In this document: piece after piece, positions 11,672 to 63,708 of the stretch
Position numbering within the stretch: position 1 is the stretch's first letter
How the letters are laid out: each line of letters opens with the position of its first letter
From: Mobula hypostoma
Taxonomy: Eukaryota
NCBI RefSeq assembly: GCF_963921235.1
Contig: NC_086097.1
Location: 73,658,001-73,722,000, forward strand
DNA length: 64,000 bases
Reading direction: 5' to 3'
Translations under genes and position numbers: made by a program
Notes under the pieces: model-generated
Told to the model about the DNA's origin: nothing
Seen by the model: the letters and a program-made list of their open reading frames with translations, nothing else
The model's database searches: none

Positions 11672-16802
<5,131 letters not shown>

Positions 16803-26338: not shown

Positions 26339-26518
26339 ATCCTCTAACCTAATAGCATGAATATTGATTTCTGTTTCCAGTGAACAAATTCCACCTGCCC
26401 CTCAACCTCTTTATTCCCCGCTCTGACGTTTCACTTGTCATCTGCCTATTACCTCCCCCTGGGTCCCCTCCTTTCCCCTCACCCCACCTTTTATTTTTGC
26501 ATCTTTCCCCTTCCTTCT

Positions 26519-26556
26519 CAGTCCTGAAGAAGGGTCTCAGCCTGAAACATCGACTG
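26519..26556 (+). ncRNA. Minimal hammerhead motif (AUC variant) in a Penelope-like terminal repeat
   Basis: CAGTC-CTGAAGA-AGGGTCTCAGCCT-GAAA-C-ATC-GACTG. Confidence 0.6.
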
Positions 26557-29778: not shown

Positions 29779-31779
29779 TGCAATGTTGGCATTCATTTCA
29801 AGATGAATATAAAAACATAGATAGGATGTTGAGACTTTATAAGGCCTCACGTGAAGTATTGTAAACAGTTTCGGGCCCCTTAGAAAGGAAGTGCTGAAAC
29901 TGGAGAGGGCTCAAAGGAGGTTCACAAAAATGATTCCAAGTTTGTACGTCTTGTCATATAAAGAGTGTTTGATGACTCTGGGCCTGTATTCACTGGAATT
30001 CAAAAGAATGAGGGGTGACCTCATTGAAAACTATCGAATGGTGAAAGGCCTTTATGGAGTGGATGTTTCATATGGTGGGAAAGTCTTAGACCAGAACACA
30101 GCCTCAGAATAGAGGAGTGTCGTTTTAAAATGGAGATGAGGAGGAATTTCTTTAGCTAGGGAGTGGTGAACCTATGGAATTTGTTGCCACAGGCATCTGT
30201 CTAGGCCAAGTCTTTATTTATATTTAAGGCAGAGGTTGATAAATTCTTTATTGGTCAGGGCATGAAGGGATATAGGAAGAAGGCAGGAGATTGGGGTCTA
30301 CTGAAATGGCAGAGGAGACTCAATGGGCCAGATGGACCACTTCTGCTCCTATGTCTTATGGTCTTATGTTACCCTTAGTCTGTCTGTCAATATAACTTTT
30401 TCTGTTATTTCCCATTCAGCCATACCCAACTCACTCCTTGTTCCTGCATGTTTTTGTTAGGGCCCTGGTTTCAGGTTGAAGAGGTTCAAACTCAATGTAA
30501 AATTCTATCACGTTATGATCACACTTCTCTAAAGACCATTTACAAAAAGGTTATTAAATAATCTGTCCTTGCAGAATACCGAATCTAAAATCCCTAGCTA
30601 GTTCCTCAACATAGTGACTTTTCGTTTAGATTCCATGAATTTATCCTCCAATTTTTGCTGCTATCTTGTCCAGCCTATATTTAGATTGAACTACCCTGTG
30701 ATTACTGTATTTCCTTGGGAATATACATTTTATTTTCCTAATTCCTGCTGTACTACTTGGTGGCCTCTAAACATTTATTTTTCATCAAACTTAGTTTCAT
30801 CCAACTGATCCCATCTCTGCATCCTGATCTGCTGAGCCAATTGTATTTCTCACTACTGTGCTGCACTTATCAACAGTGTAAGCCCACATTGTTTTCCTTC
30901 TCAAATGTGTAAAATCTTTGAGCATTCATCTACCAGTGCTAGTCACCCTTATCCTCGTTTACCTTCGCTTGTGTTAGTTAGCTGCATATGTTGTTTGGGT
31001 GTTGCTTGCATTTAGAATTTTTCCATACTTTAAACACACTTGCTGCTTACTTTTACGTCATGATTTCATGACTTGGATGCAGTCCTTTGGGATATTTGAT
31101 GATCTCGCATTGTAGTCAAAGTCAGTGAGCCCATCACAGAATCCATCCGTCCATCGACAACACCTACCACTGCATCCACACAATGGCTTCATGCACAATG
31201 CCTTCAATTAACAGCCATCCCCATAATCATTCATGGCCTTACCACAAACACTACATGCCACACCTTACACATAGGTTTAAGACTTTAGAGGGAATCTGCA
31301 AAGGAACGTAACAAAGCAGGGGTGGAAACTAGAAAAAGTAATATGTGATGTAAATCAGCAGGGGAAAATCCTGTGAGGGTAAATTAGTCCTTCCTGTTTA
31401 CGTTATCTTGGCATTTCATCGTGTATGTACCTCAATGGAGTCATAAGGACGAAAGAAGAGAGCAGGAGTAGGCCAATCAAGCTGGGAAGATACCCATGCA
31501 TTCACAGAGAGAACTCCATGCAGACAGCAATCACAGTCAGCATTTTACCTCAGTTCATTTGTGACCTATAAACTGCATCAGTGTGCTTCTTCTGCCATTA
31601 AAATCATTACTGCTCTACTCTTGGCCTCAAAGCCACATTTCCTTTTCCCTTTCCACATCCCTTTATCCCCATGCAATTCAAATGGTGTTAATATATTCAT
31701 TCAGCACCACAGCTCTCCAAGTATTCAAAACCATTTGAATGCATCATTGATGGACTCTTTGTTATTCTGAATAAGCACA

Positions 31780-32050: not shown

Positions 32051-32859
32051 TCCTCTGCAGCTTTTCTCAAAAAGCACAACTTTCCTGTAATCTGTTAGCA
32101 AATTGCATGCAGTACTCAAGCTGTGGACAAATTAATGTCATGTACCATTCTAGTGTAAACTTTTCTTTTGCATTCTTTGCCTCAGCTAATAAAGAGAAGA
32201 ATTCAATGTGTTCTTCAACTCACTTTATTAACTTGTCTTGATACTTTCAGTAATTTAATTTGCAGAGACACCAAGATCTCTCTGGCCTCGCACCATCTCT
32301 ACTTGTTGCACTTTTGACTTCCCTGTGCCATCCTTTTGGCATGTCTCCTGGCATTGAGGTCTTTGAGCATGCAGGATTTCTCCCAGGTCTCCATCCTTTG
32401 CACTAATGTCTTCAATTTAAGAACTAGTAATGAGGAAGCCTTCTTAAAAAGACAACTTGCCAATGCTGTAGTGGGGGTTCCTAAAGATGCATATTTCAAG
32501 CACTGTTTGGAACCCACAAGGACTTCCTTCTCCAATTAATGCTTGGGTTGTGGCAATCATAAAATTAGTCTCTGCCATTGTGCATTCATCTGAAAAACAT
32601 CTCTGACCACACTGTTAAAACACCACAGTAATTGTATTAGGTGCAAGCCTGAATTTCAGGTGAGGTAACACTAGGTTAAATCACTTTTGGTACTTCACTC
32701 CTTGCAGTTCCTAGACATACTTCCCCTTTTTACTAAATTACTCAGCCTCATCTTTTCCTTGTTGTTTTGTCCCTCAGTTAGCCATACTGACTATTGATAT
32801 CATCCCAAAGCTTAATGCTCGCCTATGACAGATGTTCCGACAGTAGTCCTGCATCATAT

Positions 32860-33802
32860 TCCTTCCCCCACCTCCAACGGGATCCCACCACTAAGCACAT
32901 CTTTCCCTCCCCCTCCCACTTTCCGCAGGGATTGCTCCCTATGCGACTCCCTTACTCCCTTGCCCATTCGTCCCCACCGATCTCCCTCCTGGCACTTATC
33001 CTTGTAGCTGGAACAAGTGCTACACATGCCCTTACACTTCCTCCCTTACCACCATTCAGGGCCCGAGACAGTCCTTCCAGATGAGGCGACACTTCACCTG
33101 TGAGTCGGCTGGGGTGATATACTGCGTCCGGTGCTCCTGGTGTGGCCTTCTATATATGGATGAGACCCGACGCAGACTGGGAGATCGTTTCGCTGAACAT
33201 CTACGCTCTGTCCGGCAGAGAAAGCAGGATCTCCCAGTGGCCACACATTTTAATTCCACATCCCATTCCCATTCTGATATGTCTATCCACGGCCTCCTCT
33301 ACTGTAAAGATGAAGCCACACTCAGGTTGGAGGAACAACACCTTATATTCCGAATGGGTAGCCTCCAACCTGATGGCATGAACATCGACTTCTCAAACTT
33401 CCACTAATGCCCTACCTCCCCCTCGTACCTCATCCATTATTTATTTATATACACACATTCTTTTTCTCTCTCCCCTTTTTCTCCCTCTGTCACTATACCC
33501 CTTGCCCATCCTCTGGGCTTTTCCCCCCAATTCCCCTTTTCTTTCTCCCTGGGCCTCCTGTCCCATGATCCTGTCATATCCCTTTTGCCAATCAACTGTC
33601 CAGCTCTTGGCTCCATCCCTCCCCCTCCTGTCTTCTCCTATCATTTCGGATCTCCCCCTCCCCTTCCCACTTTCAAATCTCATACTAGCTCTTCTTTCAT
33701 TTAGTCCTGACGAAGGGCCTCGGCCCGAAACGTCGACTGTACCTCTTCCTAGAGATGCTGCCTGGCCTGCTGTGTTCACCAGCAACTTTTATGTGTGTTG
33801 CT
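32860..33802 (+). mobile_element. Penelope-like element, 5'-truncated: GIY-YIG endonuclease plus terminal repeat
   Basis: ORF 33081-33407 (GVIYCVRCSWCGLLY.DETRRRLGDRFAEHL...HFN...LQPDGMN), pyrimidine-rich tail, hammerhead motif. Confidence 0.88.
33703..33738 (+). ncRNA. Minimal type-I hammerhead ribozyme in a Penelope-like terminal repeat (intact core)
   Basis: AGTC-CTGACGA-A-GGGC CTCG GCCC-GAAA-C-GTC-GACT: stem I AGTC/GACT, 4-bp stem II, GUC cleavage triplet ending at 33734. Confidence 0.8.
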
Positions 33803-33954
33803 TCATATTCCTTTCTTCTTCACATCAGCTGCCTCTTTTCTCCTCCTGAGGAAAGATCAAAGTTGGTCCTCCCCACCTTTGCATACTGATGGTCCAACTC
33901 CAAGTGATAGTGTCATGCTGCTTCCTGGCATCACTTTAAAATTCTTACCCTTAC

Positions 33955-34545: not shown

Positions 34546-36930
34546 CGAGGAACCAACTAGAGAGCAGGCTATTCTAGACTGGGTATTGAGCAATGAGGAA
34601 GGGTTAATTAGCAATCTTGTCGTGAGAGGCCCCTTGGGTAAGAGTGACCATAATATGGTGGAATTCTTCATTAAGATGGAGAGTGACATAGTTAATTCAG
34701 AAACAAAGGTTCTGAACTTAAAGAAGGGTAACTTTGAAGGTCTGAGACGTGAATTAGCTAAGATAGACTGGCAAATGACACTTAAAGGGTTGACGGTGGA
34801 TATGCAATGGCAAGCACTTAAAGATCGCATGGATGAACTACAACAATTGTTCATCCCATTTTGGCAAAAGAATAAATCAAGGAAGGTAGTGCACCCGTGG
34901 CTGACAAGGGAAATTAGGGATTGTATCAATTTCAAAGAAGAAACATACAAATTAGCCAGAAAAAGTGGCTCACCTGAGGACTGGGTGAAATTCAGAGTCC
35001 AGCAGAGGAGGACAAAGGGCTTAATTAGGAAGGGGAAAAAAGATTATGAGAGAAAACTGGCAGGGAACATAAAAACTGACGGTAAAAGCTTTTATAGATA
35101 TGTGAAAAGAAAAAGATTGGTTAAGAGAAATGTAGGTCCCCTACAGACAGAGACAGGTGAATTGATTATGGGAAGCAAGGACATGGCTGACCAATTGAAT
35201 AACTACTTTGGTTCTGTCTTCACTAAGGAGGACATAAATAATCTTGTGGAAATAGTAGGAGACAGTGGGTCCAGTGAGATGGAGGAACTGAGCGAAATAC
35301 TTGTTAGTAGGGAAGTGGTGTTAGGTAAATTGAAGGGATTAAAGGCAGATAAATCCCCAGGGCCAGATGGTCTGCATCCCAGAGTGCTTAACGAAGTAGC
35401 CCAAGAAATAGTGGATGCATTAGTGATAATTTTTCAAAACTCTTTAGATTCTGGACTAGTTCCTGAGGATTGGAGGGTGGCTAATGTAACCCCACTTTTT
35501 AAAAAAGGAGGGAGAGAGAAAGCAGGGAATTATAGACCGGTTAGCCTGACATCGGTGGTGGGGAAAATGCTAGAGTCAGTTATCAAAGATGTGATAACAG
35601 CACACTTGGAAAGCGGTGAAATCATCGTTCAAAGTCAGCATGGATTTGTGAAAGGAAAATCATGTCTGACGAATCTTGTAGAATTTTTTGAGGATGTAAC
35701 TAGTAGAGTGGATAGGGGAGAACCAGTGGATGTGGTATATTTGGATTTTCAAAAGGTTTTTGACAAGGTCCCTCACAGGAGATTAGTGTGCAAACTTAAA
35801 GCACACGGTATTGGGGGTATGGTATTAATGTGGATAGAGAATTGGTTGGCAGACAGGAAGCAAAGAGTGGGAATAAACGGGACCTTTTCAGAATGGCAGG
35901 CGGTGACTAGTGGGATACCGCAAGGCTCAGTGCTGGGACCCCAGTTGTTTACAATATATGTTAATGACTTAGATGAGGGAATTAAATGCAGCATCTGCAA
36001 ATTTGCAGATGACACGAAGCTGGGCGGCAGTGTTAGCTGTGAGGAGGATGCTAAGAGGATGCAGGGTGACTTGGATAGGTTAGGTGAGTGGGCAAATTCA
36101 TGGCAGATGCAATTTAATGTGGATAAATGTGAGGTTATCCAATTTGGTGGCAAAAACAGGAAAACAGATTATTATCTGAATGGTGGCCGATTAGGAAAAG
36201 GGGAGGTGCAACGAGACCTGGGTGTCATTATACACCAGTCATTGAAAGTGGGCATGCAGGTACAGCAGGCAGTGAAAAAGGCGAATGGTATGCTGGCATT
36301 CATAGCAAGAGGATTGGAGTACAGGAGCAGGGAGGTACTACTGCAGTTGTACAAGGCCTTGGTGAGACCACACATGGAGTTTTGTGTGCAGTTTTAGTCC
36401 CCTAATCTGAGGAAAGACATCCTTGCCATAGAGGGAGTACAAAGAAGGTTCACCAGATTGATTCCTGGGATGGCGGGACTTTCATATGATGAAAGACTGG
36501 ATCAACTAGGCTTATACTCGTTGGAATTTAGAAGATTGAGGGGGGATCTTATTGAAACGTATAAAATCCTAAAGGGATTGGACAGGCTAGATGCAGGAAG
36601 ATTGTTCATGATGTTGGGGAAGTCCAGAACGAGGGGTCACAGTTTGAGGATAAAGGGGAAGCCTTTTAGGACCGAGATGAGGAAAAACTTCTTCACACAG
36701 AGAGTGGTGAATCTGTGGAATTCTCTGCCACAGGAAACAGTTGAGGCCAGTTCATTGGCTATATTTAAGAGGGAGTTAGATATGGCCCTTGTAGCTAAAG
36801 GGATCAGGGGTTAGGAAGGGAAGGCTGGTGCAGGGTTCTAAGTTGGATGGTCAGCCATGATCATACTGAATGGCGGTGCAGGCTCGAAGGGCTGAATGGC
36901 CTACTCCTGCACCTATTTTCTATGTTTCTA
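34546..36930 (+). mobile_element. Young 5'-truncated CR1 LINE; ORF2 RT intact except one nonsense codon
   Basis: 603-aa ORF (GNYRPVSLTS, VYLDFQK, GIPQGSVLGP, KFADD), TAG at 36395-36397, frame continues to ~36814; CR1 3' UTR; short ATTAA repeat at both ends. Confidence 0.95.
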
Positions 36931-38565: not shown

Positions 38566-39184
38566 CACTGAATGGTTCCCCCTTTGTTTAAAAAAGTATA
38601 AGATTTTAAGTTTGCACTAAAAACATTCAGCTTTTTCACTGGATAGCAGAACATGAGGGGGACATCCAAGGGAGTACTCAGTCATAGGTTGTCAGTGAAG
38701 GACCAATTCAAGAAGCCTAGAATTTTTGTTTAATGCTGATACCATGGTGAATTCAAATCCATACAATTTCCAGCATTCTGGGACTCCAACTCTACTTCCT
38801 TTTCTTTGAAAAATATAAGCCAATCAGACCCTTTCAATTTCAGGCTTCTTGGCATTAACAACTGCTGCAATATTTGATTCAAAGCAACAAGTTGTGCTCT
38901 GTAAAGGCAGTTAGCGTTTGCTGTCCAATGCATGCTATTAACTTTGAACCATCTGCAATTAGCTGAAGGCCCAGTAGGCTGGGATGGTTTTGAAGCTATA
39001 CCTCACTTTGTATTTTTGCTTCTGGCACTTGGATTTTCATATGTCATTGGTACTAAATTTCTTTATTCTTCCCACCAGTGTGAATGCCCTATAAGATGCC
39101 TTCAAATCCCACTGATAAAAGAAGCTTCTTCTTTACTCTCCTTTTGCAGTGTAGATATCTGGACGAAGGTTTTTGCAATCGACA

Positions 39185-50661: not shown

Positions 50662-50820
50662 TGTCTTCCCCCTTCCTTTCCAGTCCTGAAGAAGGGACTC
50701 GGCTAGGAACATCATCTGTTTATTCATTTCCACAGATGCTGCCTGACTTGCTGAGCTCCTCCAGCATTTTGTGTGTGTTGCTTTGGATTTCTAGCATCTG
50801 CAGAATTTCTTGTGTTTGTA
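50662..50820 (+). mobile_element. Solo Penelope-like terminal repeat fragment
   Basis: cagtcctgaagaaggg...cagatgctgcctgacttgctgag...gcatctgcagaattt. Confidence 0.7.
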
Positions 50821-55483: not shown

Positions 55484-55702
55484 TCAGCAGAGAGCTTTGC
55501 TTGATCTCATATTCTCAGCACAGGATTTGCCCACGTTTGCACCTTTTAGAAGTATATCCGTGACCTGGTCCAGTCCAATGCATGTAGTCAGTGGTGAGAA
55601 AAACCCATAGAAGCCCCCAAAGAATATGCTGAGCGGCCAGCCAATGAAGAGCAACACAACGAGCCAGAAAAGCGACCAGGAAATCTCCCTGCAGCTGACC
55701 AT
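55484..55702 (-). CDS. Uncharacterised 72-aa membrane protein MVSCREISWSLFWLVVLLFIGWPLSIFFGGFYGFFSPLTTCIGLDQVTDILLKGANVGKSCAENMRSSKALC
   Basis: ATG at 55702 in accaacATGG context; strong acceptor ttttctgttttccttactgcag| with exon starting at 55747; AATAAA at 55306-55311 and 55268-55273; no repeat similarity; decayed paralogue at 37.2-37.5 kb. Confidence 0.75.
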   Translation of the reverse strand: MVSCREISWSLFWLVVLLFIGWPLSIFFGGFYGFFSPLTTCIGLDQVTDILLKGANVGKSCAENMRSSKALC

Positions 55703-56718
55703 GTTGGTCTGAAGCTTGGTAGACTGGATCTGACTGAATTCCAAGTACTGCAGTAAGGAAAACAGAAAATTTTAATGCATATGAAATGCACTTGACACTA
55801 AATAATGACATGAATATCAAATCTTATACAAGTTATTATTATTCCTATAGGTAATGGAAGATACGTTTCTGAATGACCCATTCACTCACTAGTTTACACT
55901 GCCATTACTTTTCCCATAATTATTTTATTTAATTTAATAATTTATTTTTCCACAATATGTATAATGTCAACAGAACAGTAATATTTGAAGTTAAGATTTA
56001 TTTACTGATTCAAATCCTCCTACAAGGAACTGACCTGTGCATTTTCTTTGTTATATTTTCAATAGACCAGTAGCTATCTTTTATGTATTATACATGCAAA
56101 ACAAAGTAACTTGGTTTGGAATCTTGTCCAGGGAAGTTCTGTGATATCACATACATCATAATGTAAATTAACTCTACCACTTTCTCCAAGTAGCACCCCT
56201 GGAATCCTATGTGCTACTCTTGCTGAAATTACAATGACCAAATTGAAAATTATAATGTCATTAATTCACTATCATACTTAGTGATGCATTCACTTGATTA
56301 AGGAGAATATTTTGTAAAAGAAATCAAAATAAGATAAAAGGCTGACACCTTGCAGCCATGGCAAATGAGGAGAAAATACTTGTGGACTCGCGGAAAACAT
56401 TTAAAGTTCTTGAATCATTTTGTTCCACTCCCATCTCCATTCTGAAATTAGTTTGTTCTTTTATCATATCACCTATTTTCAGCCTTGCTGAATGACCTGA
56501 CTTTCATCATGCGTATTACTCTCAAGTTGGATCTACAAAACCCATTTAAATTTCTTCCACAAGCTTTAATATACAATTCAACTATGCATAGTAGTCTTTT
56601 CTATAAAGATAGCCAATAAAATCTCACATTCTAATTTAAGAAAAATCCAGCGTCCGAACTTCTTACAGTATAGAATCTATATTATTGAGGATCTAAGTGT
56701 AAGTTGCTAAGAATTTAC

Positions 56719-60149: not shown

Positions 60150-60930
60150 TCATACAGATCAATTCGTTACAACAGTGCTTTGAGGTAGTAAAAGGTAAAA
60201 TAATAACAGTGCACAATAAAGTGTTAGAGGCATGGAGAAAGCGTGGTGCAGGTAAGCAATAGATTAAAGGTCATGACGAGACTGAGAAGTCAAGAATCCG
60301 TCTTTTTTTGACTAGAGAACCATATATTAGTGGGAAATTAGTCTCATATTAGTGGGAAAGAAGCTGACCTTGAGCCTGCTGGACAAGCTGTCAAACTTTT
60401 TAATCTTCTGCTTGGTGGGAAAGGGGAGAAAAGAGCCTGCTGCACCATGCCAGTGAGGAGTGTAGTCATGGTCCATGGAGAGGAAGCTGGTTTCCATGAT
60501 CTGCGGGTCCTGTCCACAAATCTCTGCATTTCTTGCAGTTGCCAGATCAAGCCGTGATGCCTATGAATAGGATGCTTTCTGTGCTGCGCCAGAGTGGTGA
60601 ATCCGTGGAATTTGTTGCTACAGGCAGCTGTGGAGGCCAAATCATTAAGTATATTTAAGACAGAGGTTGATAGATTCTTGATTGGTCAGGGCAAGATTGA
60701 GGCTGAGAGAAAAACTGGATCAGTCATGATTAAATGGTGGAGCAGACTCAATGGGCCAAATGGCCAAATACTGCTTCTATATCTTATGGTCTTCTAAAAG
60801 TTGGTGAGGGTCAAAATCAGAAATAGAATTAGCTATAATATCACTGGCATATGTTGTGAAATTTGTTGTTGTGCAGCAGCAGAACATTATAACACAATAA
60901 TAAAACTGTGTATTATTGCAAGTATATATA
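60150..60930. mobile_element. Mixed LINE remnants: Rex1/Babar (minus), CR1 tail 60590-60795 (plus), Rex tail
   Basis: LFSPFPPSRRLKS; VNPWNLL..AAVEAKSLSIFK.EVDRFL. Confidence 0.6.
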
Positions 60931-61374
60931 GCTGATTATGCTAACTGGGTTGGCCCTGGAGCCCAGCAACAAGGTCAACTGTGGCATGAGCTTCCTTAAT
61001 GATCGGGTGGATTGGCTAGGGAGAACTTAACATTCTTGCAGACCTACATTTGCTGTTCAAATAAATGTGTTCATAATCATTGCCCCAGCTGTAACCTGAA
61101 GTTTCCTAGCTATGGATATGCTAGGGAACTTCCACAAATTCTTCGTTCAGTATTGGGCAACGTCGAGTTGAGCCATTGAGTGTAGCTGGAAACTGCTTGC
61201 AGTTACCAGGCAGCAAATTTCAGGACTTGCACTTCTTTCTTTGTTCTGAACTTTTGAGCACTATTTGGAAAACTCATCTCACTGGAAGTATTCAGGGTTA
61301 TGAATAAACTAACAACATACATCAAAGTTGCTGGTGAACGCAGCAGGCCAAGCAGCATCTGTAGGAAGAGGTGC

Positions 61375-61410
61375 AGTCGATGTTTCAGGCCGAGACCCTT
61401 CGTCAGGACT
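61375..61410 (-). ncRNA. Minimal hammerhead motif (AUC variant), left arm of palindrome
   Basis: Reverse complement reads AGTC-CTGACGA-AGGGTCTCGGCCT-GAAA-C-ATC-GACT. Confidence 0.6.
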
Positions 61411-61420
61411 AACTGAAGGA

Positions 61421-61456
61421 AGTCCTGACGAAGGGTCTCGGCCTGAAACGTCGACT
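61421..61456 (+). ncRNA. Minimal type-I hammerhead ribozyme (intact core), right arm of palindrome
   Basis: AGTC-CTGACGA-AGGGTCTCGGCCT-GAAA-C-GTC-GACT; predicted cleavage after 61452. Confidence 0.75.
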
Positions 61457-62744
61457 GCACCTCTTCCTACAGATGCTGCCTGGCCTGCTGCGTTCACCAG
61501 CAACTTTGATATATGTTGCTTGAATTTCCAGCATCTGCAGAATTCCTGTTGTTTGCGTTATGAATAAACTCCTGGGTTTGTGTGCTCCCTTGATTAGGCA
61601 TATCTGAACTGCTTTGAGCTTGGTTATTGAGTGATGGAAGCAGAAAGCCAAGGCCTACTGTAGCAAGTAGATCATATCAACAATACAGAAAGTCATAGCT
61701 CATCATATTCAGAGTGCTGGTAGTAGACAGCTGGCAACTTTCACTATTCTTTGTAAGAAATGATTTTATTCATTCAAAAGATTCTGGGCATTACTCTTTG
61801 GATAACTCTTTCCTCCATGGAGAATTGGGATTTCTGGTAATCTCTCCAATACACAGAAATTTATAGTCTAGTAGCATCTTTTCAATCTGTGAAATATCCA
61901 TGAAAAGTATTTTAAATGAAACTTATCTCCCTATTTGCAGTATCTATTAATTAATCTCAGTGTTCTGTAAATGTTATTGCAGCTGATAATCATAACTAAT
62001 TATTACAAAAAACTAAAAAAAATCATTTAAAATAGAGCAAAAATGCCATCCAGTTCATTATCTTTACCTAAATTGTTACTAAAGTAAACTCAATTGATGA
62101 TTAGAGTGTTATTTTTTAATGGGCTGGAATTGCAGGGACATGAAAGACAAGATTCTCATTGCTGATTATTTTAACAGTGGAAATCTAGCAGCAACCTCCA
62201 GAGTGTACACAACACATGCGGTTAAAAACCAGAGTTACACCTGTGATTTTCTCCTTCTCAGCAAACTGGTTTCAAGAGATTAGTGCACTATAGGGAACTT
62301 AATGTGTGGGGAGCAAACAAGATTGCACCCAAAAACTGTGCACAATGAGGGAGGAATACTTATGATATATATATAACCTGTATTTATTTGAGCTCATGCA
62401 CAAATGTAAGCTGTTTACTCACTTTAATGATTTCATCATCTTTGTGTCACCACACTGTCACATTGTCAAGTTTGCTAGAAGCTGGCATCAATTCAAGCTA
62501 TTTTGCCAGGATGCACTTATTAGGGAAGTGCATAATGGTCATATCTGGAAGTGACTGAGACTGAAATTGAAATATTATCTTAAAAAATGAAAATAACTAA
62601 CATTTGTTAAATGATTATGCACAAAAATGTTAAAATTTAAGGTCTAAATCATTGCCATGACAACTAAAATGCAAACATCGCAAAGGAACTGTCTCATTTA
62701 AATTGAACAAGAGTTAATTAAGAAAATAACTACACCATAAGGCA

Positions 62745-63708
62745 ATAAGACATAGGAGCAGAATTAGGCCATTTGGCCCGTCGAGTCTGTTCCACCATTC
62801 AATCATGGCTGATCCTATTTTCCCCTCCTCAACCCCTCTGCCTGACCTTTTCCCCACAACCTTCGATGCTATGTCCAATCAAGAACTTATCAAGCTCTGC
62901 CTTAAATACACCCAACAACCCGGCCTCCACAGCTGCCTGTGGGAATAAGGTCCACAAATTCACTTCCCTCCGGCTAAAGGAATTTCTCTACATCTGTTTT
63001 CAATGGACACCCCTCTATCCTGAGACTGTGCCCTCTTGTCCTAGACTCTCCCACCATGGGAAACATTCTTTCCACATCTACTCTGTCTAGGCCTTTCAAC
63101 ATTCAAAAAGGTTTCAATGAGATCCCCCCTCATTCTTCTAAATTCCAGTGAGTACTGACCCAGAGCCATCAAAGGTTCCTCGTATGATAACCCTTTCATC
63201 CCCAGAATCATCCTTGTGAACCTCCTCTGAACTCTCTCCAATGCCAGCACATCTTTTCTTAGATGAGGAGCCCAAAACTGTTGACAATACTCAAGGTGAG
63301 GCTTCACCAGTGCCTCATAAAGCCTCAGCATCACATTCCTGCTCTTGTATTCTCGACCTCTTGAAATGAATGCTACCAATGCTACTGTTGCACTTGCCAT
63401 CCTCACCACCAACTCAGCTTGCAAGTTAACGTTTAGGCTGTTCTGCACAACGACTCCCAAGTTCTTTTGCATCTCAGATCTTTGGATTTTCTCCCCATTT
63501 AGAAAATAGTCTGCACATTTATTTCTACTACCAAAGTGCATGACCATGCATTTTCCAACATTGTATTTGATTTGCCACTCTCTTGCCCATTCTCCTAATC
63601 TGTCCAAGTCCTTCTTCAGCCTACCCATTTCCTGAACACTACCTGCCCCTCCACCAATCGTCATATCATCTGCAAACTTGGCACCAAAGCCATCTATTCC
63701 ATTATCTA
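62745..63708 (-). mobile_element. CR1 ORF2 3' fragment with tail
   Basis: DLDRLGEWA..WQ.KYNVGKC, LVKPHLEYC.QFWAP, RGDLIETF. Confidence 0.9.

Follow-up and report, generated by a model that had tools for sequence, protein, structure and literature searches.

How could a 246-nt insert composed of two facing copies of one sequence, with a hammerhead motif on each strand, have arisen, and is it the product of a single integration or a unit that moves as such? The insert lies in a 64-kb stretch of Mobula hypostoma DNA, the whole of which is referred to here as the window. Its two 98-nt inverted arms (61313-61410 and 61421-61518) were 97% complementary, with 3 mismatches and a 10-nt gap between them, and formed the sole inverted repeat longer than 31 nt with arms no more than 300 nt apart in the 64-kb window. 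The 246 nt were flanked by an exact 14-nt direct repeat (61297-61310 and 61557-61570), a 14-mer with two occurrences in the 64-kb window and a chance probability at a fixed site of ~1e-8. The arms, the gap and the exact 14-bp duplication given in the preliminary description were all recovered by repeat and sequence comparison. The three mismatched pairs (61450/61381, 61480/61351, and 61511/61320) were all C:G to T:A transitions. The features of the insert are as follows, with element positions numbered from the first base of hammerhead stem I (position 1).

61297..61310, plus strand: left copy of the target-site duplication (TSD), 14 bp; exact repeat, present as a single copy at the empty site (run X9, record 25).
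61311..61422, minus strand: left arm, an inverted tail-less pLTR fragment, positions -11 to about +100; 90% identity over 110 nt to 33691-33800.
61375..61410, minus strand: damaged minimal type-I hammerhead motif (G16.2>A; G10.1-U11.1 wobble).
61421..61422, no strand: head-to-head junction with 2-nt microhomology, AG, fitting both arms; read from the sequence, with loose ends behind 61422 in four of four runs.
61421..61556, plus strand: right arm, a 5'-truncated pLTR fragment with tail, positions +1 to +136; 92% identity over 100 nt to 33703-33802.
61421..61456, plus strand: minimal type-I hammerhead motif with all core bases present (core scan; features in PMC4209133).
61519..61556, plus strand: Penelope 'tail' of 36-38 nt, on the right arm only (alignment with other copies).
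61557..61570, plus strand: right copy of the TSD, 14 bp (exact repeat; empty site).

The symmetric arm-spacer-arm reading first given to this locus held for the arms but not for the rest. On the minus strand, the 10-nt 'spacer' (61411-61420) is the left arm continuing into native upstream pLTR sequence. BLAST aligned 61422-61313 to a sibling copy at 33691-33800, and beyond 61422 the contigs of all four runs shared one dominant continuation, which matched sibling positions 33666-33690 by eye with 1 mismatch in 25. The AG at 61421-61422 ends the left arm and also opens the right arm, which runs 36-38 nt past the inverted repeat, to 61556; the insert is an asymmetric palindrome. The tail is exclusive to the right arm and positions -11 to -2 are exclusive to the left arm, so neither arm is a plain copy of the other. 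The left-arm terminus coincided in the alignment with the ends of the copies at 33703 and 39185.

The source of both arms was traced through related copies, several of which were found inside the window by BLAST. The closest, 90-92% identical to the arms, is the sibling:

32865..33802, plus strand: 5'-truncated, tail-less copy from a closely related subfamily, carrying a GIY-YIG remnant and a hammerhead at 33703 (BLAST, ORF, and homologs).

This copy is non-inverted, has its own 11-bp TSD (32854-32864 and 33803-33813), and carries upstream an ORF remnant (32895-33407) colinear with the pLTR; its hammerhead at 33703 (plus) lies on the coding strand, ~300 nt past the endonuclease stop. The best homologs of the ORF, among 10 matches, were unnamed proteins of Mobula hypostoma (89%), Hypanus sabinus (86%), and Rhincodon typus (64%). 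Pfam gave no match for the sibling ORF alone; in the Rhincodon typus homolog P0007, it placed RVT_1 at 1-121 (below cut-off) and GIY-YIG at 355-432 (23.2 bits; cut-off, 22.6). The ORF at 32895 and homologs P0001, P0003, and P0007 contained CX4CX2C followed by C-x2-C..H..H. A CX2-5CxxC motif upstream of GIY-YIG together with CCHH is given for Neptune, Nematis and Naiad (PMC8557442), and Naiad was excluded because the reverse transcriptase (RT) domain precedes GIY-YIG here. Among six older hammerhead-bearing copies that were aligned, four extended into the GIY-YIG endonuclease, and no RT of the insert's family was found inside the 64-kb window. Because a close copy continues into GIY-YIG, and given the CX4CX2C motif and the domain order, both arms very probably represent the 3' pLTR end of a Neptune-type Penelope-like element, as judged from sequence comparison. 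The earlier suggestion of a Penelope-like retro-insertion is thereby supported, as is that of a stub reduced to its inverted repeats: two 5'-truncated pLTR ends with no coding DNA between them.

The 3' ends of the family fell at two places only. In an alignment of both arms and six other copies (8 rows), three ends were tail-less, near the equivalent of 61518-61521 (left arm and the copies at 33703 and 39185), and five were tailed (right arm and the copies at 26520, 50682, 14706, and 24082, the last with an internal deletion). The tail is optional and 30-40 bp long in published Penelope elements (PMC3846280). Behind 61554, many contigs (249 in X1) departed from the reference into flanks of mixed sequence (agreement 0.39), which marks the family end. 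Five older copies yielded no convincing TSDs. One copy, an old Penelope-like remnant with a second tail in tandem, sits between exons at 13864-15964 (minus) and 14540-15318 (minus), which, judging by their sequence, belong to a muscle-type actin gene. More divergent hammerhead-like remnants at 19347-19255 (minus) and 39155-39184 (plus) probably belong to older Penelope-like families.

The empty site, which the preliminary description had proposed to look for, was found directly in run X9 (organism C), where a 205-nt contig joined 61209-61296 to 61557-61673 with 2 differences and a single 14-mer. Because a related species has the empty site, the 14-bp duplication is a true TSD. A contig of run X12 (organism D) covered 60927-61296 plus 73 unlisted letters; depth arithmetic predicted 9.01, the value observed, if these letters continue over 61557-61629, and 4.78 otherwise, and on this arithmetic the site would be empty in organism D as well. 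Run X5 (organism B) covered the flank patchily, with no listed piece across a junction. In X1, which may be the source sample, record 1 crossed the left junction with 0 differences. The A at 61513, present on both arms, accounted for 24% of depth in X1 and for 2.4%, 0.2%, and 0.8% in the other three runs, frequencies that suggest a source both young and specific to one lineage. The family is very large, with 82,053 X1 contigs placed and nearly all depth on the element, depth not being copy number. An assembly artefact was rejected on account of the three differences between the arms, the sequence exclusive to each of them, the existence of the TSD and the empty site, and the X1 contig that crosses the left junction. 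The insertion is real, young, and dead, belongs to a known kind, and can serve as a presence/absence marker among related rays.

How, then, were two ends of one family joined head to head? Each arm contains a stretch absent from the other, so reverse transcription would have to be primed twice, with opposite polarity; both target strands were probably primed separately. Both arms also cross the predicted cut site of the hammerhead, so their templates were uncut or religated. A cleaved-RNA template was rejected for this locus, as both arms span the cut site and no listed junction (n = 14) started at +33. The Poseidon protein of the anole offers a precedent: it nicks and extends both strands from two internal start sites that bound the tail, uses uncut RNA, prefers AT-rich DNA, and is modelled as a dimer (PMC11167929). 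We consider it probable, at roughly two chances in three, that the insert consists of two 5'-truncated Neptune-type ends joined head to head in one integration in which both nicked strands primed reverse transcription. The RT-endonuclease of the element, supplied in trans, would nick both strands 14 nt apart. Priming by the bottom-strand end would occur at the outer start site, at about 61554-61556 where the tail ends, and priming by the top-strand end at the inner one (equivalent to about 61519-61521), both on uncleaved pLTR RNA. Synthesis of the two cDNAs would end at the outer hammerhead edge, after about 136 and 112 nt, possibly because the template RNA begins there, and the cDNAs would then be joined at AG and filled in. 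The hammerheads would be passengers, and read-through RNA would form a 98-bp hairpin burying both. That each arm has exclusive sequence and ends at one of the two RT start sites argues that both target strands were primed in vivo. The two-strand biochemistry is known from a Poseidon element rather than Neptune, and the A shared at 61513 would follow from partial copying of one arm from the other, though also from a single young source of both.

A stem-loop conserved at the RT start sites received no support (z -0.4, -1.1, -0.3, and +0.25), and a near-symmetric target motif around the 14-bp TSD was rejected, being absent by eye at the TSD of the sibling.

The 10-nt overhang and 2-nt microhomology fit a fold-back of the top-strand cDNA equally well. 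Here, the AG of that cDNA would pair with CT 10 nt back and copy itself into most of the mirror half, and the tail would come from a short bottom-strand cDNA; in a variant, proposed for Penelope elements of rotifers, an antisense template serves for self-priming. The sequence does contain a short loop of 10 nt and the AG/CT pairing, the arms share the 61513 A, and their three differences, being C:G to T:A transitions, are compatible with later mutation. Divergence between the arms (3/98) did not differ from that of the flank from organism C (2/205; Fisher p 0.33), for which reason we also rejected an argument from arm divergence for two different source templates. Self-priming at inverted junctions has moreover been argued previously (PMC3846280). 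However, fold-back alone cannot yield the tail, and a second priming event is therefore still needed; in the predicted DNA fold of 61380-61422, the final 9 nt have no partner; and other listed junctions have overhangs of up to 96 nt, although near-perfect palindromes are under-sampled in contigs. We regard this route as unlikely.

In L1 elements, twin priming produces head-to-head geometry together with microhomology, and both match the insert. Transferred to this locus, one RNA with tandem pLTRs would serve both strands, its 3' pLTR giving the right arm and its upstream pLTR the inverted arm. Penelope-like elements are transcribed from partial tandems (PMC8557442; PMC11167929), and the copy at 14706 has a second tail in tandem. 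Still, one RNA and two are indistinguishable in the insert sequence, and a search by title or abstract found no report of twin priming in Penelope elements; we consider this origin improbable.

Other head-to-head junctions of the family bear on whether the insert is a one-off or a unit. Across the runs, at least 362 joints were counted, and 15 chosen for depth were listed. Fourteen of these were junctions of left to right arm, all different from each other and from the one studied here, with overhangs of 13-96 nt and microhomology of 0-3 nt; 12 of the 14 carried the flag 'between: not known'. When tested as colinear copies, none of the 14 exceeded 29/50, one side alone giving 25. Junctions of the head-to-head type are therefore frequent and diverse, in line with an origin of each one at insertion, and this copy is likely a dead, one-off product. 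Several listed junctions, however, reached a depth of 50-117 against ~8 for the single-copy flank, depth not being copy number, and three listed joints were present in more than one species; some junctions may accordingly be repeated. A tail-to-tail joint (61556 to 61313, that is, the tail end followed by an inverted tail-less end) was seen in X1 only, in 6 contigs, with the letters between flagged as not known.

Each arm has a hammerhead motif. The plus core (CUGACGA..GAAAC-GUC) lies at 61421-61456 and the minus core (..GAAAC-AUC) at 61410-61375. In the plus motif, stem I is formed by 61421-24/61453-56 and stem II by 61433-36/61441-44, with an extra A at 61432 and a predicted cut after 61452. 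Over the window, a strict scan for the hammerhead core with paired stem I found one motif in each arm and two more, at 33703 and 26520. Rfam gave no match at gathering score over the window; near the locus, its 13 weak, sub-gathering matches included no hammerhead family and were mostly miRNA-precursor models scoring the hairpin. Across the 8 aligned rows, 93.8% of 64 stem cells were paired, against 14-52% when the alignment was slid, and compensatory changes were no better than in shuffles (0 of 8 pairs changed on both sides).

The core motif is present on both strands, as first described, but the idea of two working ribozymes is not supported. In the minus motif, the CpG transition G16.2>A breaks the C15.2-G16.2 pair of the palindromic 15.1-16.1 tetramer and, by changing it to ACAU, removes the pair needed for the dimer; the tetramer self-duplex was calculated at +3.4 kcal/mol for this arm and at -1.7 kcal/mol for the ACGU of the plus arm. 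The two motifs cannot assist each other on one RNA because they lie on opposite strands. In both arms, 10.1-11.1 is a G-U wobble rather than G-C, C accounting for 18% of depth in X1 and 74% in X12. Minimal hammerheads of the Penelope type cleave weakly even as dimers (PMC4209133; PMC6765202). Stem pairing probability of the plus motif on its own arm was 0.07-0.13, compared with 0.87-0.99 for the sibling hammerhead. The 246-nt insert folded at -205.7 kcal/mol (z -25.6), a value equalled by 0 of 200 shuffles, the hammerhead stems within it had a pairing probability below 1e-19, and forcing a hammerhead fold on the whole insert cost 64.6 and 61.9 kcal/mol. These calculations support the earlier idea of a hairpin that competes with ribozyme folding and predict that both motifs would be locked inactive in read-through RNA by the 98-bp hairpin. 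The sibling hammerhead at 33703, which folds well alone, is a better candidate for a cleavage assay than either arm.

These results also bear on the proposal that the insert is a non-coding palindromic unit of MITE-like or retrozyme-like type, re-mobilised in trans, in whose cycle the ribozymes play a part. Such a unit would accord with the clean TSD and young age of the insert and with the presence of some other junctions at high depth or in two to three species; non-autonomous pLTR derivatives do exist, as retrozymes (bioRxiv 10.64898/2026.07.22.740005) or as host DNA between pLTRs (PMC3846280). Yet the repeats are not terminal on the right, and the ends of the insert are the two ordinary ends of the family, the left one being the tail-less end that a re-copied palindrome need not reproduce. 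The 14 listed junctions all differ from this one and from each other, stem pairing in the full insert is below 1e-19, the minus motif is damaged, and the layout is not tandem as in retrozymes. Because the repeats are not terminal and the listed junctions all differ, the MITE-like unit that the preliminary description had entertained is not supported, and we judge re-mobilisation in trans very improbable.

The right arm begins exactly at stem I, as had been remarked, and this seems to be a recurrent feature of the family. The start of the longer arm fell at positions 3-13 in 13 of 14 listed junctions (p 1e-7 under a naive null), in a sample biased in that the reference ends at -11 and trimmed alignments shift inward. 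Within the window, four of eight arms started between about -18 and +3. A pyrimidine tract and AG resembling a 3' splice site lie just upstream of stem I at 33691-33707, 26508-26524, 50670-50686, and 61422-61406 (minus), and in D. virilis an intron ends at helix I of a hammerhead (PMC4209133). As a tentative and rather doubtful extension, the ray Neptune machinery might copy a short non-coding pLTR RNA that begins at the outer hammerhead edge, its 5' end being set by a transcription start or by the 3' splice-site-like AG at stem I, and a dimeric enzyme might run two of these off from both target strands, mass-producing near-perfect hairpin insertions. If so, thousands of stubs would document in the genome how Penelope elements integrate and would serve as a permanent supply of dsRNA against the family, and a few junctions may be re-amplified as units. 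Should the 5' ends really cluster at the hammerhead edge, the large ray family allows a statistical test of how inverted ends form. The single locus matters little, being a dead stub of published architecture, and is useful as a clean example.

Other searches and neighboring features were as follows. Two patterns gave 0 matches in a viral contig collection. In a metagenome contig collection, the first pattern gave 0 matches and a 19-mer gave 114 loci, which we attribute to chance because none matched beyond 40 nt. No tRNA was found in the 64-kb window, and there is therefore no sign of a SINE head. At 55487-55702 (minus), a 72-aa hydrophobic ORF lies behind a clean 3' splice site near 55748; it had no Pfam match, and the ESM Atlas returned unnamed eukaryotic clusters of 72-76 aa, mostly arthropod, at 0.93-0.94. 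This ORF is probably a real conserved small membrane protein, and its ATG is 5.6 kb downstream of the insert, which possibly sits within the first intron. Two oppositely oriented LINE-like 3' ends, 70% alike, lie at 60597-60793 and 62739-62963, about 500 and 1200 nt from the insert; the same repeat, unrelated to the insert, also occurs at 30161-30365 and 36701-36782.

MITEs are short and non-coding, with inverted repeats at both termini and a TSD. In contrast, the inverted repeats here are non-terminal: 38 nt of tail, left unpaired, separate the right arm from the TSD. The duplication is also long and of variable length, and the sequence comes from the end of a retroelement. Animal non-LTR retrozymes (bioRxiv 10.64898/2026.07.22.740005) resemble the insert in being short, non-coding, and pLTR-derived with a type-I hammerhead; they form head-to-tail tandems with all ribozymes on one strand, whereas the insert is one inverted pair. 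A search by title and abstract, with subscription literature mostly outside its range, found no description of pLTR-only palindromes in rays.

The hammerheads share their core, the extra base between 9 and 10.1, and the lack of helix III with metazoan Penelope hammerheads (Cervera and De la Pena, 2014; PMC4209133), and the plus arm matches their palindromic 15.2-16.2. Those of the insert differ in having the G10.1-U11.1 wobble, a minus copy without the 15.2-16.2 pair, and motif starts 10 nt apart; in Schistosoma, minimal hammerhead pairs lie 100-700 bp apart on opposite strands (PMC4209133). Green anole Poseidon PAc (Frangieh et al., 2024; PMC11167929) is comparable in its tail-bounding start sites, the extension of both strands, the AT-rich target, and the use of uncut RNA. 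PAc belongs to the Poseidon clade, in contrast to the CX4CX2C linker of Neptune seen here, and the accessible portion of the PAc study does not model inverted junctions.

A close parallel was found in EN+ Penelope-like insertions (PMC3846280; PMC8557442; Schostak et al., 2008, PMC2377424), which have in common with the insert an inverted 5'-truncated copy, a tail at one end, a variable TSD, and overlap at the junction. Inverted pLTRs with a tail on one of them, TSDs of 8-10 bp, and mostly head-to-head junctions were reported by Gladyshev and Arkhipova (2013; PMC3846280), and the same architecture of inverted pLTRs and tail is given in general terms by Craig et al. (2021; PMC8557442) and in PMC8969392. 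The TSD is longer here than these 8-10 bp, at 14 bp in the insert and 11 bp in the sibling. Unlike the published insertions, this one has both arms cut down to 112-136 nt; coding DNA is consequently missing between them, and the insert in its entirety forms a near-perfect hairpin.
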